Source of the DNA: a virus
Lineage: Duplodnaviria; Caudoviricetes
Direction: 5' to 3' (one strand)
DNA length: 39,548 nt
IMG/VR virus record: IMGVR_UViG_3300025288_000045
Location: 1-39,548 of that record
Shown here: positions 2,798 through 35,659 of the stretch, in pieces
Layout: each line of letters begins with the position of its first letter
Numbering within the stretch: position 1 is the stretch's first letter
Translations under genes and position numbers: made by a program
Notes under the pieces: model-generated
The model's input: only the letters and a program-made list of their open reading frames with translations
Told to the model about the DNA's origin: nothing
The model's database searches: none

Positions 2798-3096
2798 GCA
2801 AGCGCCTTCACCAGCTCTGCACGTTCTGTCGCAATCTGCGCCTCTAATGCTGCCAGCCTATCGGTCGGGCCGCCCAGTAAGACTTCCCGCACCGCTCTGG
2901 ACTGTGATTGCTCAAGTGCATTTATGCGCCCTTTGATAGCTGCGATGGCGGCTTCTTTCACCTGCTCCGGCGTAGGCGCGCGCAATGCGTCCTCCTCGGC
3001 TTGCGTTATCAAAACGCAACCTACGGGGAGTAGATGCAAAGCCGCCCCATCCATGTCGTCGTGGATTTGACCGTTGCTGTCTTTATGTAGTGCCAT
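2794..3096 (-). CDS. Putative tail fibre assembly protein / chaperone
   Basis: Small ORF directly after a fibre gene; C-terminal amphipathic helix (RAVRE...LEAQIATERAEL). Confidence 0.6.
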   Translation of the reverse strand: MALHKDSNGQIHDDMDGAALHLLPVGCVLITQAEEDALRAPTPEQVKEAAIAAIKGRINALEQSQSRAVREVLLGGPTDRLAALEAQIATERAELVKALA

Positions 3097-3107
3097 TATT
3101 TTTTCCT

Positions 3108-3746
3108 TTAACGAAGTTCGGTTGAAACACCACTTGCTACTGAAGTTTCTGTAAGCAAATAAGATGCATTATTTGGTATTAGACAGTTTCCAACAATCTG
3201 CGGGGTTGCGGCATTCCCGGAACTATGTCTAGCAAAATCGAAAGGTGTTCCTCTGTTGATGGAAATAGTAACCCGAATGGTAGCTCCTGAACCATCGAAT
3301 GACTTTCGCAAAATGATAGGCTTACCCGTTGTGTTGTAATAAGTTGTTCCAGCAACCCTTGTAACGGCCTGCCAAGTTTGCCCGTAATGTCCGCCTGCCA
3401 ATGCATTGTTTGCTGTAGTATTAGCAGTCTCTGCTGTCTTCGGGTCAATCGCTCTTTGATAGTTCCTCACCTCGCAAGTGGTAGAGGTGAGCATGTACGC
3501 CTCGAAGGTGTCCCCTGCCGCTGTGGGGATAGTAGCTCCACCTTGCAGGATAGTCAGCCCTGCACTGTGTGCCAAGGGACCAGCACCATCAGTGGTTATT
3601 TCATAAGTTACTCCTACAATCCCAGTAAATGAATCTATCTGAGCCGTACCAGTAAGCAAGATCTTAGTAGCTTCACCAAGAGCGACTGTTGAAGCTCTAG
3701 CAATAGATACTTGTGTTGCTTGTACTGCTGCATTAACTATTCCCAT
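3108..3746 (-). CDS. Short tail fibre / receptor-binding protein
   Basis: GQTWQ...TTYYNTTGKPI tip motif ending ELR; shares a ~200-bp repeat with 8966..9760. Confidence 0.75.
   Translation of the reverse strand: MGIVNAAVQATQVSIARASTVALGEATKILLTGTAQIDSFTGIVGVTYEITTDGAGPLAHSAGLTILQGGATIPTAAGDTFEAYMLTSTTCEVRNYQRAIDPKTAETANTTANNALAGGHYGQTWQAVTRVAGTTYYNTTGKPIILRKSFDGSGATIRVTISINRGTPFDFARHSSGNAATPQIVGNCLIPNNASYLLTETSVASGVSTELR
3368..3563. repeat. Direct repeat copy 1 (partner 9223..9439)
   Basis: Near-identical DNA including a 64-bp perfect match (3500-3563 = 9376-9439); copy 2 has a 21-bp insertion. Confidence 0.95.
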
Positions 3747-4287: not shown

Positions 4288-5499
4288 TTAAATAGCCTGT
4301 AAGTGGTCACAGGCGGCACGCAACCCAGTGCTCCAGACCGAGGACCACGGGGAGTAGAACCAAAGGGAAGCCCGCGAACCGGAGTGCGCGCCGCACGCGC
4401 GCGAGCCGCCCAGGATGACGCGCACAAGGCCATATGTGCCTAAGGTATAGATAGAGCCTCGCTGACTACCCGCAGCACCTGTATTGCCGGTCACTGTCTT
4501 GTAGCTACCCGCGCCAGATGCGTCCTGGTGTGCACTAGAATCCTGCCCCCACGTCCATTGATGGCCTGACGCCTGCTCAATGCCGTACTTGCTGGTGTAG
4601 CCTGCATTGCGTTGCGTGGTCGGGTAGGTTGAAGCGGTGGCATCGATGGACTGGTTCTCGGTCACGCCAAAGAACGCTGTGGCAGCTTCTTCTTCAAACA
4701 TCAGGCGCTTCTGCTTCGCGCGCGCCAGCTCGTTCGCCACCCACCAGTTCAGCGATGGGTAGGTGGTTGTGCCATTCCCCCCGAATGCGGTTGGAATCTT
4801 TGGCAGTACCGTTCCGCTGGCGATGTTCGTGTTGTACTTGCTGGTGCCGTTGGTGTCGGTATCGGTGCTGGCAAGGTAGATGTCCACCCACACCTCTCCA
4901 TCCACCAACACCATTCCGCGCGGGTCGGATGCCGCTGGGCGGAACTTCAAGTCCCAGATGCTCCATGCGTTGATACCAGCAATCTTATCTACATCAGCTT
5001 GAGTCCAGATCATGCCATTGCCTGTTGTGGCAAAACCACCACTAGCAACCGTTGTACCTGCAGCTACAAGACCGTGATGGAAGCCTCCGATCTTGCGCCA
5101 ATTGCCTGCGGCGGGTGCGCTTATAAAGTCCGTTGTAGCCTGAATCGTTGCATCGTCCTTCACCCAGATTGCGTAGTCCGTTCCACCAACAAGGGCAGGC
5201 ATAGTGATAGCTGTATCAGATGAGAATGTAACCATAGTTTCAGCCACACTAATCCTAGTACCTGCCTTTATTGAAAGTGCTCCCGCAGATACCTTAGTGA
5301 AGATAGGGGTTAATGAGTCAACTTTTAAAATTGAATTGTAACTAGAATTGTTTAACTGGCCCAGATTAACAATATGTCCAGACGATGTTGCATCTGGAAC
5401 CAATACCCCAGTTGAATCAGCTATTAGTTTATCAACTCCGCCAAATTGGATAGAGCCTGATAAACCATCTGCTGCTGTTTTTAATGATATGTTTGACAC
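4288..5499 (-). CDS. Mtd-like (major tropism determinant) receptor-binding protein with C-type lectin/FGE-type C-terminal domain
   Basis: GGFHHG, WSIWDLKFRP, DPRGM, WVDIYL, and a C-terminal GG-x7-SGSRA-x2-W...GLRAACDHL closely resembling the Bordetella phage BPP-1 Mtd C-terminus. Confidence 0.85.
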   Translation of the reverse strand: MSNISLKTAADGLSGSIQFGGVDKLIADSTGVLVPDATSSGHIVNLGQLNNSSYNSILKVDSLTPIFTKVSAGALSIKAGTRISVAETMVTFSSDTAITMPALVGGTDYAIWVKDDATIQATTDFISAPAAGNWRKIGGFHHGLVAAGTTVASGGFATTGNGMIWTQADVDKIAGINAWSIWDLKFRPAASDPRGMVLVDGEVWVDIYLASTDTDTNGTSKYNTNIASGTVLPKIPTAFGGNGTTTYPSLNWWVANELARAKQKRLMFEEEAATAFFGVTENQSIDATASTYPTTQRNAGYTSKYGIEQASGHQWTWGQDSSAHQDASGAGSYKTVTGNTGAAGSQRGSIYTLGTYGLVRVILGGSRACGAHSGSRASLWFYSPWSSVWSTGLRAACDHLQAI

Positions 5500-27817: not shown

Positions 27818-29485
27818 CTATGCTGTGAAATTGTCTATGTCAAATAGTGAATCGGAGTGAGAGGGTGTATCGTCAGTATAGACGAAGTCTCCCTTAAGCA
27901 CCATATATGCTATGTTTGCGAATACTATTGAGTGGAGCCAGTCGTCACATAAATCCTGGTCATGCCTATACAGTCTACGTCCGGACTGAGATTCCTCTTC
28001 GTACACGTTAAGGGCATCCTGCCAGAATGGGTTAGTTAGCTCCCATGCTGGGGTCTCAAACCTACCCTTACCGAGTTTCATCTTTAATATAACGGTATCT
28101 ATATTCATAGTTCTATCAGCTGCGTAAAATAGACCCTGTTTATCCCATCTTAGCTGAGTTTTAGAGGCTACATAGTTAACCATAGCTACTTTCTGATCCC
28201 CTAAGTGCTGCTTAAATAACTGACCCTGTAATACCCCCACCCCTCTGTCTGAGCCGATGAAGGAACACTCAAACTGATGATAAAGTTGTTCAGCACGCTT
28301 TACTTGTAATAGCACGTCAATCCCGTCTAATTTCTGGCTATACAATAGATAACACTTACCGTTATAGTCATAACCTAAAATTGAGATTATAGTATAAGAC
28401 TTAGTACTACCTGACACAGACCAATCTACCCCTAATACAGTACACACTATATTTCTAGAGTCTCTAGGAAATCCAGTATCCCAAGCCGTCTTAGAGGTAT
28501 TACAGCAATCCATACACTCCTTAATAGAGAGAATGCGGCCTCCTTCTCCACTAGGAAGTCCAAAGACTTCATTGGCTACTTTCTGCATCGAGTAACCTTT
28601 GGACCCGTTAAGGCCAAAAATCTTACCTCTCATCTCTTCCCATTTTCCAGGCTTTTCAACTGTACCTGTCCTTGTACGTACTGGGAATATAAGTTGAGGG
28701 AGATGCATCCCTATATAGTTTTTAACCTCAGGTCTGGCAGCCGCCCACCTACCGGTAGACATATTTAATACCTTGCCGCAGTACACACAGCCGGGGCCTA
28801 AAGGATTCTCTGATATTTTTAAGCACGTCTCAAAGTCGATAGGAATTGTATATTTACCACAGTGCTCACATTTGCAAACCCATTCACATTGAGAAGATTT
28901 TTTATATTCAACCTCTAGCGTATTATTGAGTGTCTTACTGGTTCCGGCTAGTCTCTTAAATCCAAATTCAGAAGCTGATAATGTTTCATATAGAACTGGT
29001 AGGGCGTCTTGGGAAATGTCCTGTATCTCGTCCAAAAGGAGCTGATCACAGGAAGCGCCACGCACACGTCCACTATCTGCTTCTGTCTCGGCGTAGCTGA
29101 GATAAATGCGGGATCCATTATTTAGTGACTTCTCAAACACGTTCTTTTTTGAGGACGTATCCATGAAATGTTTTTTTAGAACAGGGCTGGCTAAAAATGG
29201 ATCTAGGTATGCCGAAGAAAATCTACTAGTCTGACCACTCAATGGAGATATAAACATAGTGGTAAAGAATGGTCTAATCACAGACTGAGCGATGATTGTT
29301 GCACCTAGCCCCAGGGACTTCCCAATCTGTCTTGAAGCGCGTAAAACCAGCTGTGGTGGGGCTATATCGTAGATTAGCTCCATAGGGAGATAGTCTTTCA
29401 TATTAAGGGGTTTACCTCGTACCTGTAGTAGGGCGCGGGCTATCTCGGAGGGTTTTAATTTTATAAGGCTAGACAGATTACTCAT
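27818..29485 (-). CDS. terL: Terminase large subunit (GpA-like)
   Basis: Walker A SRQIGKS, Walker B LLLDEIQD, coupling motif GTS, CEHC/CVYC zinc ribbon, nuclease GVDW and C-terminal DDWLHS. Confidence 0.92.
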   Translation of the reverse strand: MSNLSSLIKLKPSEIARALLQVRGKPLNMKDYLPMELIYDIAPPQLVLRASRQIGKSLGLGATIIAQSVIRPFFTTMFISPLSGQTSRFSSAYLDPFLASPVLKKHFMDTSSKKNVFEKSLNNGSRIYLSYAETEADSGRVRGASCDQLLLDEIQDISQDALPVLYETLSASEFGFKRLAGTSKTLNNTLEVEYKKSSQCEWVCKCEHCGKYTIPIDFETCLKISENPLGPGCVYCGKVLNMSTGRWAAARPEVKNYIGMHLPQLIFPVRTRTGTVEKPGKWEEMRGKIFGLNGSKGYSMQKVANEVFGLPSGEGGRILSIKECMDCCNTSKTAWDTGFPRDSRNIVCTVLGVDWSVSGSTKSYTIISILGYDYNGKCYLLYSQKLDGIDVLLQVKRAEQLYHQFECSFIGSDRGVGVLQGQLFKQHLGDQKVAMVNYVASKTQLRWDKQGLFYAADRTMNIDTVILKMKLGKGRFETPAWELTNPFWQDALNVYEEESQSGRRLYRHDQDLCDDWLHSIVFANIAYMVLKGDFVYTDDTPSHSDSLFDIDNFTA

Positions 29486-29857: not shown

Positions 29858-30073
29858 ATGGCAGAGATCGTCCAAACAAACATCGTAATTACCGCAACTG
29901 ACACTGAGTACCAGGTACCTGGTTCATTGAGTGTCTCCCAAGTTGTGGCTGCATATTCCAGCCAAATCCCCGGTCTGTCTGGCTATCAGGCTTCGGATGA
30001 GATCGTGACACGTGAAGGCATTGGCCAAGTTCGCGTTATCACCTTCCGTCCCAAAACTGGTACTAAGGGTTAA
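29858..30073 (+). CDS. Prokaryotic ubiquitin-like protein (Prok_Ub / PRTRC protein C-like)
   Basis: 71 aa, beta-grasp-like pattern, C-terminus F-x-P-K-T-G-T-K-G; AAGGA RBS; first gene of an E2/JAB/E1 cluster. Confidence 0.85.
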   Translation: MAEIVQTNIVITATDTEYQVPGSLSVSQVVAAYSSQIPGLSGYQASDEIVTREGIGQVRVITFRPKTGTKG

Positions 30074-30100
30074 TCTTTAACCCTGGTGGAGAAACGGGTT

Positions 30101-30126
30101 CGGGTCCAGCTGGACCCGTTTTTTTT
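30101..30126 (+). terminator. Intrinsic terminator after the Ubl gene
   Basis: Palindrome CGGGTCCAGCTGGACCCG followed by T8. Confidence 0.8.
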
Positions 30127-30146
30127 AGTAAGAGGAGGTTTATATT

Positions 30147-30977
30147 ATGGCAGAAGTAAAGGTTTTTCTAAAAAACAGTATACCGTCACTATCTAGGTTA
30201 ATAGTAAATTACCGTAAAGAAAGGATTAATAAGCTCCTGGAGTTCACTACGGCTAAAAGTAAAGAATATGGTATTATTCCAAAATCATCCACTGTGGTGG
30301 CAGATTTAAGGGTTACCTCTTCTACCTCCAGGAAGTTTTTTAAAAAAATTTATACCTCTTTATATAATCAGGTGGCTAAAAAAGTCCCCTATATGGATTT
30401 CATGGAGAAGGATGAAGTGGAGATGGTTAATAGTGGACTGAGTTTAACAGTACCATTAATAACTACCAGGATTCTTGTTAACATGGAGGGGCTGGTGGAC
30501 GTGGACGATGTAGGACTGAAGCCTAATCCTAATAGTAAGAGCCGCTTATATGTTAGTAACGATATTATATGTTCTCATCTGGAATCCTCAGGAGCAGATT
30601 TTGATTCAAAGACAATACGAAGATACTTGGCATATCTTAATTATAAGGCCGCTAGGAATGGGTGTCCTATTAAGCTTTTTTTAAAGGTTAGAGCTGAATC
30701 AATAGCGGGATTACCTAGAGAGGGTTCCCGACTTATGCCTGTACTATTTTTTATGAATATTAAAGTAGAATTAGGTAGTTGGTATGTAGGTGATATGGCA
30801 GACGGCGATATCCCAGTATCATATGGGTTTGGCTCTTTTGGTATTTCTCCAGATACCTATAGTAGGTATCCAGAGTGCTCCTCATTCAACTTATTTACAT
30901 TCTTGGATGATATATCCAAAGTTATTAGAACATTAAGTAGGAAAGGAAATTATAATGCAAGCGCCTATATTATCTAG
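30147..30977 (+). CDS. Hypothetical protein in the Ubl operon
   Basis: 276 aa with a strong GAGGAGG RBS; no motif recognised. Confidence 0.7.
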   Translation: MAEVKVFLKNSIPSLSRLIVNYRKERINKLLEFTTAKSKEYGIIPKSSTVVADLRVTSSTSRKFFKKIYTSLYNQVAKKVPYMDFMEKDEVEMVNSGLSLTVPLITTRILVNMEGLVDVDDVGLKPNPNSKSRLYVSNDIICSHLESSGADFDSKTIRRYLAYLNYKAARNGCPIKLFLKVRAESIAGLPREGSRLMPVLFFMNIKVELGSWYVGDMADGDIPVSYGFGSFGISPDTYSRYPECSSFNLFTFLDDISKVIRTLSRKGNYNASAYII

Positions 30978-31224
30978 TATAGCGTTAAGTTTAAATAGGG
31001 CTACCAGTATAACTGATGATGTAGTTGAAGCAATTAAAGAGTCATACCTGATAAAAGATATATCCACCAGAGAAGATGTAATTTCCTGTGTTAAAAACAT
31101 CACTACCATATTCGGGGTAGAGCACAACGGTGGCTTGCACTTGAGAAATGTAGTAAACAATGTTATTGGCTCAGTGAGGAAAGCTAAGCACTATTCTAAC
31201 CTAACATCAGGAGATTTCGTATGA
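30955..31224 (+). CDS. Hypothetical protein in the Ubl operon
   Basis: 89 aa with an AAGGA RBS; ATGA overlap with the E2 gene. Confidence 0.6.
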   Translation: MQAPILSSIALSLNRATSITDDVVEAIKESYLIKDISTREDVISCVKNITTIFGVEHNGGLHLRNVVNNVIGSVRKAKHYSNLTSGDFV

Positions 31225-32024
31225 GTGAAGGTATAGTTATTGAGGGGTCTCAGGATACCCCAGAAGTAGTAGAGGCCGCGCTTGTAGCTAGTAAGGCTCT
31301 ATCTGACTTAGAAGAAACACTGTTGACCCAGGTGAGGGTGAATGGGCAAGAAGTAACACTGATGGACGATGCAGTCATAATTAAAGGCGTGGGTGGTATT
31401 AATAAAACTATCTCATATGAGGACTTTATTAGTTCAGTCCTTAGGGCTACTAATACCCTTTCCGAAGAAACTAAGTTATCATTGTCTCTACCCGGTAGTG
31501 TATCCTACTTGGCAGTGGGGCCCACTGAGTTAGATATCTCTTGTTATTATAAAGAAGGGGTTAAACCCTTCCAATTCTCTGATGGGAGTAGAATGGAAAG
31601 GTATGACATAGTAGTTCCTAATATTATCGTCAGCCATAAACTTAGAAGAGAAAGAAGTGACTGGGTCCATAATGGAGCATTCTATACTGTAACAAATATG
31701 CCGGTTAATAAGCTACCACAGGACAGACTTATTACAACTATGGACCGTGATAGGGGTATTTTTCTAATGCCATTTACCAACGCATATGACTCTTGTAATA
31801 TGTGTTATGGAGGTAATAAGATGCCCGTTAGATTTATAGATAATAACCTGAGGGGCCTAGACTACTACTACAACTTCCTATGGGAATCTCCATTTAATAA
31901 TGACTTGGGTATTAGTAGCAAAGTAAACCGAAACATGTTCTCCAGCCCCGTACAATGGTACCATCATCTCAGGGATCTAGCTATAGATAATAAGCCATTC
32001 CCCTATGGGGACCTACGACGTTAA
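31221..32024 (+). CDS. Prokaryotic E2-like protein (Prok-E2 family D / PRTRC protein B-like)
   Basis: PFTNAYDSCNMCYG (candidate catalytic Cys) and FLWESPFNNDL motifs. Confidence 0.8.
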   Translation: MSEGIVIEGSQDTPEVVEAALVASKALSDLEETLLTQVRVNGQEVTLMDDAVIIKGVGGINKTISYEDFISSVLRATNTLSEETKLSLSLPGSVSYLAVGPTELDISCYYKEGVKPFQFSDGSRMERYDIVVPNIIVSHKLRRERSDWVHNGAFYTVTNMPVNKLPQDRLITTMDRDRGIFLMPFTNAYDSCNMCYGGNKMPVRFIDNNLRGLDYYYNFLWESPFNNDLGISSKVNRNMFSSPVQWYHHLRDLAIDNKPFPYGDLRR

Positions 32025-32040
32025 ATAACGGCGTAGATAA

Positions 32041-32049
32041 TGGTATAAG
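32041..32049 (+). promoter_or_regulatory. Extended -10 promoter candidate upstream of JAB
   Basis: TGGTATAAG in the intergenic gap before an AAGGAG RBS. Confidence 0.45.
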
Positions 32050-32095
32050 TAACTAGTAGTATGTAATAAACCATCTACTAAAGGAGATAAATTAA

Positions 32096-32563
32096 ATGCA
32101 AATATTGATGCCTAATATCAGTTGCATCTGCCACAGTTTACAGGAAGAGACTGATGCAGTTACACAAGGCTACAAAGAGATCTACACCATTGTAAAAGAC
32201 GAATACTTCAAGAAACATGTATTCCGTGGGGAGAACCGTTTCATTAGACTGAAGGTAGACTCTATTCCGGGATATGTTCGTCCTGCTTCTGAAATCATCC
32301 CGGCTGAAATGACTAGACAAGAGATTGCCTTTCTGCCAGCGGGAAAGATCTCCTATGATATCTGGGAGCAGATCATCGCCTTCTTTAAGAAGGTTATGGA
32401 AGTAAAGAAATCAGAAGTAGAGGCAATGATCCACGTCCTTTATAATGCTGAGCGAGGGTACCACATTGGTGTCCCCCCTCAGACAGTTTCCAAGGGAAGT
32501 GCTAGTTACGACTGGGAATACGTCCCGACGGGAACTAGTGTAATCGTGGATATTCACAGCCAT
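32096..32563 (+). CDS. JAB/MPN metallopeptidase (PRTRC protein A-like), exon 1
   Basis: Catalytic Glu in EVEAM, VPPQTVS, ends ...VDIHSH. Confidence 0.9.
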
Positions 32564-32746
32564 TAACTCCTAAGTATGGTGGCCTAATCAGGTAACTGAT
32601 TTGATAAAATCGGGTGAACTCAGACAACTGAGGTGTAGGATAACTCCTGCTAACGGGGAACGGAAATGCGAATTCCCAATCCCGTGCTAAGCTTGCGAAA
32701 AGACATTGAAGTAGCAAGAAAGTGTAACGACTAATCCTTGAGCAGT

Positions 32747-33619
32747 CTATGCAATAATAGGAACACGAGCGCCCGACTCCGAAGAACTTTCGGATGATGA
32801 TATAGTCTGATCTTGTGGTATTTCGTAGTATTTATCGTATTTACGTTTTAAGTAAAAAGTACAATCTTTATAGACAGTATCCATGAACAGTTGTACATCT
32901 TCCTTAGAGTTTATATCTAAGGAAAATATGGATTTCTTCTTACTTATGAGAAACTGTTTAGGCTTTAAGAAATCAGCCATGCCTAGTAAAAACTCCTTAG
33001 TTCCACAGATAGTTATAACTGGATTTACATAGGTTTTTACATATCCCCTCTTAGAGACATACCTAGTCTTTTTCCAGTACATACAGCCATCACCATCATG
33101 ATATCCTAATGTGAATGATGCGTGGAACTTACTAGGGATTAATGGATACAAATTAGGCATAGTAAGTGATTTGCGATAACCCAACCCATACTGTCGCAAA
33201 TCATCGCAAATTTGTTGATTACAAACGCGGAAGGACACCTGGTCCTTATTTTCAAAATAGTGTATAGCTAACTCAGACCCGAGTTCTCTCTTCAACGTAT
33301 CGAGGACTGTACGATCCTTGCTGAGTATGTTAATTGCCAGAGTATCTCTATGGCCACTATTAGTTTTACTCTCTACTATACATCCATCTGCTGCTATAAA
33401 GCCTAGAAAATATGCTTTAATGTGTGAGTCTATAGTCTGAAAGTAACTCATATTACCTTGGTGTGGTGTTAACTTCCCCGTTATCCCTCTGTGACGTTTA
33501 TATAGCTTAGGTATAGTAGTTCGATGTAACCCAAACATGGCTGCAATTTCAGTCCCTGTTTTTCCGTCATCGTACATTTTACATATTAGTTCTATATCGT
33601 CACTATCAACTGATTTCAT
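32747..33619 (-). CDS. LAGLIDADG homing endonuclease (two motifs, N-terminal HTH), antisense within the intron
   Basis: YFLGFIAADGCI and FTLGYHDGDGCM motifs, LKRK C-terminal motif, N-terminal TGTEIAAMFGLHRTTI HTH; AAGGA RBS. Confidence 0.92.
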   Translation of the reverse strand: MKSVDSDDIELICKMYDDGKTGTEIAAMFGLHRTTIPKLYKRHRGITGKLTPHQGNMSYFQTIDSHIKAYFLGFIAADGCIVESKTNSGHRDTLAINILSKDRTVLDTLKRELGSELAIHYFENKDQVSFRVCNQQICDDLRQYGLGYRKSLTMPNLYPLIPSKFHASFTLGYHDGDGCMYWKKTRYVSKRGYVKTYVNPVITICGTKEFLLGMADFLKPKQFLISKKKSIFSLDINSKEDVQLFMDTVYKDCTFYLKRKYDKYYEIPQDQTISSSESSSESGARVPIIA

Positions 33620-33643
33620 CTTAATCCTTTATTTATTGATAGT

Positions 33644-33672
33644 ATTTTAACGTAACATGCCATATACCGCAA
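33644..33672 (-). promoter_or_regulatory. Sigma70-type promoter candidate for the endonuclease
   Basis: TTGCGG-17 nt-TAAAAT on the minus strand. Confidence 0.6.
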
Positions 33673-33704
33673 GGGCTTAAATTAAAAAAAGCTATAACTT
33701 ATTG

Positions 33705-34538
33705 AATACAATGGGAAGTTTCTTTTCAGCGACGGATGATCGAGATGACCTTAATGCCATTGGTTTTTCAGGCGTTGTAGGAAAACTCAAAGATAAAGAA
33801 CCAGAAGTAAAAATCCGCTTTAACTACTACAAACAGAAGTATGAAGTAAAACTCCAGGATATCTTCCATACGCCAGAAGATCGTGTTGTGGATGTTCCTG
33901 AAGAGTGGTTAGCTAACGTTAATACTCCTAACTACTCAGTGGGACGCGGGGATTACCGGGGGTATCAGGGTGGCCATAAGTGGGATCATTTGAAACAGTA
34001 TCAATTCTCTAAGGCTAACCCGGATAACACAACTGCATCTGGTGAACGTGCTGGACCTAACGTACGGGGTCTACCTTATCACTCGGATCCAACTTCTCTA
34101 GGATCAATATTTGGAGACGACGAAGGGGGGCTCCCACCGGGTTTTCCCTCGGGGGCTCAGGGAAAACTCCCCCTGGGTCCCGCAGGTTCTCGAAACGTGA
34201 GCAGAGAGCTAATAGAAAAGCCCTGCGAGAAGCAGTTAAGGGATGAGAGTAGTGGTGAAGAGATAGATGAGAATGATCCTGTTGGAAACTACCTCAGTAC
34301 ATTAGAAGATGACCAATACGCGTTCTTGGCCATTCAATATGGTGGGGAGGTAGCCAATGCATTTTCATTGATCAGTGATTGTATGACTGCCCTATCCGGT
34401 AAAGATGAACTTATATCAGAAGTTATCTGCGATCTATTCCAGTTAATGGAAGATGAAAAACAGGTGGATATGGTTAGGGAACTGTACAATACACTCCCGT
34501 GGAAGTATCAATCACAAATAGCAGAAAACGGTATGTGA
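33705..34538 (+). CDS. JAB/MPN metallopeptidase, exon 2
   Basis: NTMGSFFSATDDRDD completes HxH-x7-S-x2-D; spliced product 433 aa with a low-complexity linker and helical C-domain. Confidence 0.9.
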   Translation, partial: NTMGSFFSATDDRDDLNAIGFSGVVGKLKDKEPEVKIRFNYYKQKYEVKLQDIFHTPEDRVVDVPEEWLANVNTPNYSVGRGDYRGYQGGHKWDHLKQYQFSKANPDNTTASGERAGPNVRGLPYHSDPTSLGSIFGDDEGGLPPGFPSGAQGKLPLGPAGSRNVSRELIEKPCEKQLRDESSGEEIDENDPVGNYLSTLEDDQYAFLAIQYGGEVANAFSLISDCMTALSGKDELISEVICDLFQLMEDEKQVDMVRELYNTLPWKYQSQIAENGM

Positions 34539-34588
34539 AGGTGGGGGTTAAACACCCCCTCCTATTACTAATTTAAAAGGAGAGGCAC

Positions 34589-35659
34589 TTGTTTAATTTT
34601 ATTCCATCAACCATTCCCCATAATATCATCGTTGTAGGATGTGGGGGGACCGGCTCCAGGTTAGTCCCCCTGTTGGCTCAGTTTATCCGATCTATCACCA
34701 AGGATTATTCACCACGAGGATGGTTAGGCACCCCCAATATTGTGTTATGTGATCCTGATACGATTGAGGAAAAAAACTTGGCACGTCAAAACTTCATCCA
34801 CCAGGATGTTGGTAAGAATAAGGCAGTAGTTCTGGCCGAACGATATAGCAAGGCTTATGGGGTGTCTATTATACCGATGACTTCTCGTATAGAAGGACAT
34901 ATGGATATCCAAACATTCTTTACTACCCAATTAGGTGTGAACCTGGAGAGTGAACCATGTATGATCATCATGTGTGTTGACTCCGTAGTAGCCAGGAGAA
35001 ATATTATCTCTAACGCTATGTCAATCGTAGACCTTAATGATAACTATAGTAATGCGAATGTGTTTATCATTGATTCTGGTAATGAGGATAATTTTGGCCA
35101 AGTAAACTTCTTCAATCCAGAGATAGGTTTGCATCCTGATAATTTCGAAGTGGGAGTAATTGAAAAATTACCCAAGATGATTACTCACGTGGAAAATATA
35201 CACAGTATACCTATGGATATTAAGCATTATCTAGAGTTGGCTGATAATCCGGGCCTAGGTAGTTGTGCTGATCTAGATCAAACTTTGGCCATCAACGCCC
35301 TAGTAGCAACAAATATTATTGCAGTAGTTCAGAATTATTATTACCGTAAACCTATGAACTTCAACAAAGTATTTGTGGATATGTTAGGAGGTTCTTCTAC
35401 CACCTTTAATACTATGTCTTACTTTCTATCCATAGCTGCTGAGAGTTACACTGCTATTAAGAGTCACCCTAACCTTAAAGAATTATCCTGCATGGATGTA
35501 CACCTTGGTAATAACAACGATGTCATATACAGAATGGTTAAAGGTATTATTCATAAAGAGGAGACTGCTCGTATTAAGGAGGAAGAGGCTGCGAAAAGGG
35601 CTATGATAATGGCTGCGGTAAGGGCTAAGCTAAGGCTAGGGGTAATACCCACCAGGTAG
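34589..35659 (+). CDS. ThiF/E1-like ubiquitin-activating enzyme (PRTRC ThiF-like)
   Basis: VVGCGGTGS, DPDTIEEKNLARQNF, CVDS, IDSGN, and SCAD (candidate catalytic Cys). Probably extended to 35908 originally. Confidence 0.93.
   Translation: MFNFIPSTIPHNIIVVGCGGTGSRLVPLLAQFIRSITKDYSPRGWLGTPNIVLCDPDTIEEKNLARQNFIHQDVGKNKAVVLAERYSKAYGVSIIPMTSRIEGHMDIQTFFTTQLGVNLESEPCMIIMCVDSVVARRNIISNAMSIVDLNDNYSNANVFIIDSGNEDNFGQVNFFNPEIGLHPDNFEVGVIEKLPKMITHVENIHSIPMDIKHYLELADNPGLGSCADLDQTLAINALVATNIIAVVQNYYYRKPMNFNKVFVDMLGGSSTTFNTMSYFLSIAAESYTAIKSHPNLKELSCMDVHLGNNNDVIYRMVKGIIHKEETARIKEEEAAKRAMIMAAVRAKLRLGVIPTR

Follow-up and report, generated by a model that had tools for sequence, protein, structure and literature searches.

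The window, a phage DNA stretch of 39,548 nucleotides, carries within its JAB protease gene a group I intron whose LAGLIDADG endonuclease gene runs on the opposite strand, and, judged from its sequence, this element is probably a selfish mobile intron from a hitherto undescribed antisense lineage. Specifically, we propose that the ribozyme would splice the JAB message whole, that a dedicated promoter at the P9 3′ strand would drive the endonuclease gene, and that the enzyme would cut intron-less alleles in co-infecting phages, upon which the intron would be copied. Ribosomes in the splicing precursor are a known cost of sense-oriented intron genes, and the benefit of the inversion would be that ribosomes translating the endonuclease never enter this precursor.

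Pfam and PHROG matches, including a terminase large subunit at 27818-29485, mark the window as a phage contig, and its sequence is present in groundwater and aquifer metagenomes. The interrupted gene belongs to a PRTRC-like operon with the following parts:

29858-35659, plus strand: PRTRC-like operon, with a putative ubiquitin-like gene, two unknowns, a Prok-E2_D-like gene, JAB and ThiF/E1
29858-32024, plus strand: upstream operon genes, encoding proteins of 71 aa, 276 aa and 89 aa and a Prok-E2_D-like protein of 267 aa
32096-32563, plus strand: JAB/PRTRC-A-like protease exon 1, 156 codons, terminating in ...DIHSH
33705-34538, plus strand: JAB exon 2, 277 codons, beginning with NTMGSFFSATDD
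34589-35659, plus strand: ThiF/E1-like gene (PF00899, E 6e-13; TIGR03736, E 2.5e-25, below cut-off)

The 267-aa E2-like protein matches Prok-E2_D (PF14460) at E 2.5e-5, slightly under the cut-off. Since the 71-aa protein has zero Pfam, NCBIfam and PHROG matches and stands without an alignment to its counterpart in Salmonella phage Arash, we infer its putative ubiquitin-like nature from its size, place and C-terminal Gly alone. Like the PRTRC-type ubiquitin-like operon (TIGR03735, TIGR03736, Prok-E2_D, Prok-JAB), the window's operon holds E2-like, JAB and ThiF genes in one run; unlike it, the operon is phage-borne, its JAB gene is split by an intron, and all its NCBIfam scores are below cut-off. 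Phage Arash has a similar operon gene order, with E2-like proteins 26% identical, and this likeness would fit a sigma70-type host for the window phage. JAB matches also occur in Vibrio phages D69/D148/D181, which together with Arash provide systems in culture for a phage ubiquitin-like pathway that has gone unstudied.

JAB exon 1 is 60% identical to the N-terminal part of the uninterrupted JAB genes at loci L003 and L004, and the L003 protein matches Prok-JAB (PF14464, E 6.5e-9, passing the cut-off; below the TIGR03735 cut-off). Exon 2 aligns with positions 145-187 of TIGR03735 PRTRC_A (E 8e-8, below cut-off) and has a tblastn match to L003. Both uninterrupted genes read HSHNTMGAFFSGTD across the window's exon junction, and removal of the intron restores HSHNTMGSFF as in L003/L004, so that the HxH-x7-S-x2-D motif is regained on splicing. 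The label 'deconjugase' for this JAB protein is a prediction by family only. Split JAB genes of this kind are common: among 47 JAB homologs, 22 are uninterrupted and 25 appear as pieces, and many JAB genes of phage ubiquitin-like operons that are filed as hypothetical proteins thus call for corrected annotation.

The anatomy of the intron can be read directly from the window, as follows:

32564-33704, plus strand: group I intron, 1141 nt, starting with an in-frame TAA, last base G
32559-63 with 32579-83, plus strand: P1, with U.G at the 5′ splice site
32574-77 with 33706-09, plus strand: P10, pairing read from sequence
32610-16/32770-76, plus strand: P3, two-sided changes across 28 cores
32619-50, plus strand: two extra hairpins between P3 and P4, read from sequence
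32653-58/32680-85, plus strand: P4, two-sided changes across 28 cores
32692-96/32714-18, plus strand: P6a, two-sided changes across 28 cores
32729-33/32803-07, plus strand: P7, paired in 139/140 cells of 28 aligned cores
32735-62, plus strand: P7.1/7.2 hairpins between P7 and P3′, pairing read from sequence
32778-84/32788-94, plus strand: P8, pairing read from sequence
32811-21/33664-74, plus strand: P9, closing the endonuclease insert, 11/11 pairs

The intron interrupts the HSH/N motif of JAB (slash, insertion point), within zinc-binding codons. P2 pairs as well, beside P1, P3, P4, P6a, P7, P8, P9 and P10, and the core at 32610-32807 folds with an MFE z of -2.2. The group I features are present: U.G in P1, a terminal G, and a P3-P7 pseudoknot with P4, P6 and P8, accompanied by covariation. 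The window intron has hairpins between P7 and P3′, a trait of group IA, and its assignment to this subgroup is tentative. In Rfam, RF00028 matches 32554-32828 with 33 bits (E 2.6e-6), below the gathering score of 50, and no Rfam match exceeds the gathering score anywhere in the window. In five loci of the family that were scanned, RF00028 passes at L013 and L118 (76 bits each), gives 29 bits at L002 and is unlisted at L173 and L087; the P9 insert and the extra hairpins likely lower the score of the window intron. By eye, the hairpins at 32619-32650 also occur in L002, L007, L014, L087, L088, L089 and L092, and most other members are without them.

The window's splice junction matches the uninterrupted L003/L004 alleles, and splicing by the ribozyme is predicted to leave an intact JAB message. 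Three metatranscriptome runs contain 5-18% of the window's words, in short contigs without a spliced joint; among these, X20 covers 32574-32785 in the 5′ core of the intron and X21 covers 33346-33539 within the nuclease gene. These contigs are uninformative either way, because they report neither strand nor level and may stem from DNA carry-over. In five DNA runs, we found no intron-less joint in the window's own population; variant letters (few, possibly from one site) fall several times in exons and are not listed inside the intron. An assembly artefact was ruled out: in three runs a single contig spans the entire stretch, which is also found again in divergent loci.

The sequence-only reading had placed an inverted LAGLIDADG gene in the loop closed by P9, and we confirmed this arrangement; the P9 pairing that it gave, 32812-21/33664-73, is the inner 10 of the 11 pairs. 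Three features belong to this gene:

33619→32747, minus strand: antisense two-motif LAGLIDADG endonuclease gene, 290 aa (ORF and Pfam)
33488-33604, minus strand: N-terminal three-helix HTH-like module, residues 6-44 (AlphaFold three-helix bundle)
32747-32821, minus strand: C-terminal tail, likely antisense core creep, reverse of P9 5′, P7′, J8/7, P8, P3′ and part of P7.1/7.2

LAGLIDADG_1 and LAGLIDADG_3 of Pfam are both above cut-off. Residues D78, D177, K150 and K260 are invariant among 45 aligned homologs, and D78 and D177 are predicted to be catalytic. The AlphaFold model (45-row alignment, pLDDT 90.7) consists of the three-helix N-terminal module and two LAGLIDADG domains, and its best Foldseek matches in the PDB are I-LtrWI, bI3, I-Tsp061I, I-LtrI and I-AniI, along with I-OnuI. 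The protein thus displays both features of the two-motif LAGLIDADG family, namely two helices with acidic residues and the matching fold. It shares fold and two acidic catalytic motifs with PHROG 4645 and with the monomeric two-motif nucleases I-LtrWI, I-AniI, I-OnuI and I-Tsp061I, yet is only 13-17% identical to these nucleases and belongs to a lineage with variable HTH modules (0-2). Across the 35 listed loci (defined below), motif 1 is found in 35/35 and motif 2 in 33/35.

Because bI3 maturase and I-AniI are among the top fold matches, and a LAGLIDADG maturase is known from a Thermotoga intron (PMC3984707), the protein could mostly be a maturase that aids intron folding; alternatively, the window copy could be a decaying relic, as broken copies such as the truncated one in L014 exist. 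Fold likeness cannot separate maturase from nuclease, though, and in the window the reading frame is complete and neither Asp motif is disrupted. Sister introns without the gene retain a near-identical core. We consider these two possibilities together very unlikely.

The sequence-only reading had also given the protein an N-terminal HTH. The predicted three-helix bundle stands behind it, but the HTH families of Pfam stay below cut-off (E 0.002-0.008). By region length, modules number 0, 1 and 2 in 8, 19 and 8 of the 35 listed loci, with start calls possibly wrong at L088 and L118; the endonuclease of Flavobacterium phage Fpv1 is without the HTH region.

The antisense orientation is a trait of the lineage and not a peculiarity of the window, as far as core and protein comparisons tell. 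Endonuclease-alignment scans listed matches at 167 loci (two scans gave their best 80 each; near-duplicates and two copies of the window's element are included in the counts). With a core profile, the 45 best-scoring of these listed loci have an antisense core in 43 cases, no core found in 2 and a sense core in 0; among the remaining 122, the core is sense in 32, not found in 90 and antisense in 0. Adding Fpv1 to the antisense set and removing L009, L014, L096 and L114 (3′ end or core motif not located) and L086 (duplicate) left 39 loci, which clustered at 85% into the 35 listed loci. In a quick tree with midpoint root, these 35 antisense proteins separate from 21 sense proteins on one branch (SH-aLRT 97), although gathering the set by likeness to the query favours such clustering. 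Since the antisense proteins form one branch, a single inversion fits, and it likely happened once, at the base of the endonuclease lineage.

Insertion sites in the 35 listed loci, seven of them assigned from exon 2 alone, are H/SH (19), HSH/ (12), GH/IHSH (1, Fpv1) and T/YTEF (1) in JAB, and YMH/SH (2) in an E2-like gene. These targets are conserved His codons, as is usual for homing introns. In L118 and L167 the element occupies the YMH/SH codons of the upstream E2-like gene, which is named by its operon place and has zero Pfam match, and the L118 JAB gene is whole; we read this as a jump between look-alike His motifs. Additionally, 11 of the 47 JAB homologs end just after HSHNxMG (P0088, P0091, P0095, P0101, P0107, P0108, P0110, P0112, P0113, P0124 and P0126), which suggests one further insertion site; a search for the DNA behind these proteins located none. 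The window core at 32610-32777, from an HSH/ intron, is nearly identical to that of L002, an H/SH intron, and P1, P2 and the 3′ end differ between the two; recombination between introns at neighbouring sites is the likely source of this likeness. In L018, a second, sense LAGLIDADG_2 gene (3069-3680, minus strand; PF03161, E 1e-33) lies between P7 and P3′ and converges on the antisense gene, and such doubly invaded introns are also seen in L097, L106 and L107.

Upstream of the endonuclease gene lies a candidate promoter, as the sequence-only reading had noted, with its -35 box in the P9 3′ strand:

33620-33672, minus strand: predicted sigma70-type promoter and RBS, with -35 TTGCGG at 33672-67, -10 TAAAAT at 33649-44 and AAGGA at 33629-25

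The boxes are separated by a 17-nt spacer, and AAGGA precedes the ATG by 5 nt. Taken alone, this promoter is at chance level, because it matches 8/12 consensus positions and is absent from the promoter-scan list, and the TTG of its -35 box is forced by the conserved P9 stem; its support is comparative. In the region from the P9 3′ strand to the ATG, we counted TAnnTTTG, the Bacteroidota -7 element (PMC6847099), and found it in 18/35 listed loci, reading along the nuclease strand and 11-27 nt ahead of the ATG, against a shuffle expectation of 2.6 and 2/35 on the opposite strand. Of the 17 remaining loci, 7 have TAnnnT downstream of the P9-derived hexamer at a distance of exactly 17 nt, where chance would give 1.1 (binomial 6e-5; 17 nt is one of 12 spacings tried); other spacings give 4/17 (12 nt) and, in the TAnnTTTG-type group, 6/18 (13 nt). 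The window is among the seven, and the promoters of L087, L092 and L166 score 10/12. These enrichment counts are non-independent, because the loci share ancestry. Taken together, the motifs suggest that the endonuclease likely has its own promoter, in two host-typical forms. Transcription converging with that of JAB, also put forward in the sequence-only reading, is made likely by this enrichment of sequence motifs.

The coding tail overlaps the ribozyme core. The reading from sequence had put the last ~25 codons opposite P7′, P8 and P3′, and this holds: the codons from 32821 to 32747 (24 residues and a stop, TAG at 32747-49 within the P7.2 hairpin) are the reverse complement of these strands and also of P9 5′, J8/7 and part of P7.1/7.2. 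AlphaFold gives pLDDT <50 at residues 271-286, so the tail is predicted to be disordered. A QTISS-type peptide, the reverse reading of J8/7-P7′, occurs within the last 70 residues in 57/87 homologous proteins and elsewhere in 0/87, and is a simple marker for finding further antisense elements. In the 35 listed loci, the stop position, counted from the P7′ end, ranges from -17 to +64 nt: 10 loci stop no later than the P7′ edge, 14 stop at +25, and only 2 (the window at +61, L092 at +64) read beyond P3′; the window's nearest kin in the tree overlap by +31 and -5. The P9 stem is kept in all 35, with 6-12 pairs (median 7). The reading frame over the core is the same in 33/35, and this, with the recurrent +25 stop, is compatible with descent and also with a degree of selection acting on the tail.

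The core-creep model predicts a variable-length, dispensable extension (PMC3073962), and both the range of -17 to +64 nt and the tail pLDDT under 50 match it. The overlap is therefore likely stop-codon drift that adds a disordered tail. A DNA-pattern survey of related cores gave 123 loci (L176-L298; long flanks for 80), most with a short P9; a loose rule returns 106 of the 109 distinct surveyed cores, an overcount that includes L290 and fossils. Overlaps are ≤37 nt in 25/27 nuclease-bearing introns, versus a next-stop distance ≤37 nt in 29/101 surveyed cores, which argues against selection for deep overlap, the two sets being non-independent and differently composed.

By a crude rule, no terminator-like site was found within 330 nt past the stop in 34/35 listed loci. 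Because only one locus has such a site, the antisense RNA probably extends across the core wherever the stop lies, and its complementarity to the core, claimed in the sequence-only reading, is probable; for interference with the ribozyme, the extent of the transcript weighs more than the reading frame. With the core unshielded in these 34 loci, interference with splicing is possible. That reading went on to propose that the antisense nuclease mRNA is kept as a device that pairs with the core, blocks splicing and gates JAB activity in time, with the HTH repressing its own promoter. The comparatively backed convergent promoter and the missing terminators would suit such a device, as would the position of the intron, since it splits the JAB zinc ligands and unspliced RNA would therefore yield no active JAB; moreover, I-TevI is known to autorepress (PMC2988022), and PMC9548176 considers the danger that antisense interference could pose to nuclear introns. 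Against the device stand the overlaps that end at or before the P7′ edge, the disordered tail, the 22 intron-free JAB homologs, Fpv3/FpV4, which propagate without the intron on the same host strain as intron-plus phages, the residence of the element in an E2-like gene, and the close relatives L002 and L191/L212, which deleted gene and promoter and retained the intron. Such free loss and relocation would not be expected of a conserved timer; its role is doubted for this reason, and we regard it as quite unlikely. Autoregulation by the HTH likewise lacks backing: the region is missing in 8/35 loci, an operator resembling the homing site over the promoter reaches p<0.05 in 1/27 loci (p averages 0.58 and is 1.0 for the window), unlike in I-TevI, and no inverted repeat within 32500-33800 has both arms in the promoter. 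A wider version, in which one ancient inversion was followed by re-tuning of the P9-strand promoter to each host sigma factor and the unterminated antisense RNA became a switch that silences the ribozyme and times the phage ubiquitin-like pathway, strikes us as unlikely, too. For the selfish mobile intron that we favour, damping of splicing by antisense RNA would be a side cost, if any.

The element was observed in three states, namely uninterrupted alleles, full elements and introns with only a nuclease fossil. In L002 (5463-5804), the JAB intron is without the nuclease gene and holds a C-terminus fossil in P9 in the same antisense frame; its exon 1 is 92% identical to that of the window, its insertion site is 6 nt upstream, and the -10 box is deleted as well. 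The JAB introns of L191 and L212 lost the gene and keep a C-terminus fossil in P9, again in the same antisense frame. L002 and L191/L212 likely represent two independent losses, by sequence comparison.

Cultured Flavobacterium phages provide a matching pair. In Fpv1 (NC_031914), gp56 and gp54 flank the inverted 'endonuclease' gp55, and ThiF adjoins; Fpv3/FpV4 lack exactly 1021 nt, which is the predicted length of the Fpv1 intron. The Fpv1 junction matches FpV4, which reads WYVGHIHSHNT across it, as predicted. Intron-plus and intron-less phages are both recorded on strain 950106-1/1. Between Fpv1 and FpV4, 0/360 nt differ upstream, 15/42 in the first exon 2 nucleotides and 0/558 in the next. 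This 42-nt divergent tract is the pattern expected of co-conversion in homing; recombination with a divergent donor that removed the intron is another possible source. With both phages on one host strain, homing, splicing and antisense effects are now testable.

These records also bear on the possibility that the nuclease is kept mainly as an inter-phage weapon, which would cut a rival's JAB gene and lower its yield, with homing as a by-product. The idea reportedly stems from work on jumbo-phage intron endonucleases. In its favour, the catalytic motifs are retained across the lineage, escape mutations in the targeted active-site motif are costly, and Flavobacterium phage records with the insert outnumber those without it, 22 to 7 (Fpv3, FpV4), duplicates included. 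On the other hand, these counts reflect sampling of near-identical isolates, the nuclease gene is repeatedly deleted, and the JAB operons are only putative as essential genes. We therefore hold this alternative to be improbable.

Mobile phage introns, core creep and the antisense genes of nuclear rDNA introns are already known. Core creep occurs in the introns of T4 (td/I-TevI, nrdB, nrdD) and SPO1 (I-HmuI) (PMC3073962, PMC2988022). Like the window element, these introns place a ribozyme in a conserved phage gene, with an in-frame stop after the 5′ splice site and a nuclease gene with its own promoter in a peripheral loop, overlapping the core. Their nuclease genes are reported to be translated from intron RNA and to need hidden ribosome sites, whereas the window's lies on the other strand, encodes a two-motif LAGLIDADG enzyme and overlaps the reverse strand of the core. 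Sense-oriented relatives of PHROG 4645 are found within the genes for recA and DNA polymerase (SA11, 0305phi8-36).

The nearest parallel in orientation comes from the His-Cys genes I-DirII (Dir.S956-2) and I-DsqI (Dsq.L2066), inverted in a peripheral loop (P9.2 for I-DsqI) and expressed from the opposite strand, where antisense interference was raised as a concern too (PMC9548176). These introns reside in eukaryotic rRNA genes, unlike the window intron with its protein-coding host gene, and the separation of Pol I from Pol II and of nucleolus from nucleoplasm, the escape proposed there, is absent for a phage in a bacterium. In the main-text passages of the open-access literature covered (including PMC3984707, PMC6125680, PMC11835236, PMC7886860, PMC12880540, PMC12386605, PMC4528723, PMC5107563, PMC3428280 and PMC10914365), we found no report of an antisense nuclease gene within group I introns of phages or bacteria, nor of an intron in a phage JAB gene; the tables of PMC7886860 and PMC11835236 may list such elements. 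With this lineage one can ask directly whether a ribozyme is hampered by a fully complementary RNA when transcription and translation occur in a common compartment, and whether inversion lets a gene escape the conflict between ribosomes and splicing.

Three further observations concern the surroundings of the lineage. One candidate, cr111_1, is a different element, with a related core but a sense endonuclease, in thyX. The short-P9 phage intron type is very common, with ~380 stored stretches estimated in IMG/VR from one exact pattern, and L214 and L216 each hold 3-4 copies within 5 kb. Elsewhere in the window, the gene at 4288-5499 (minus strand) encodes a product that matches PF21916, the Mtd second domain (E 1e-12), and is presumably of the tail-fibre type of retroelement-diversified phages.
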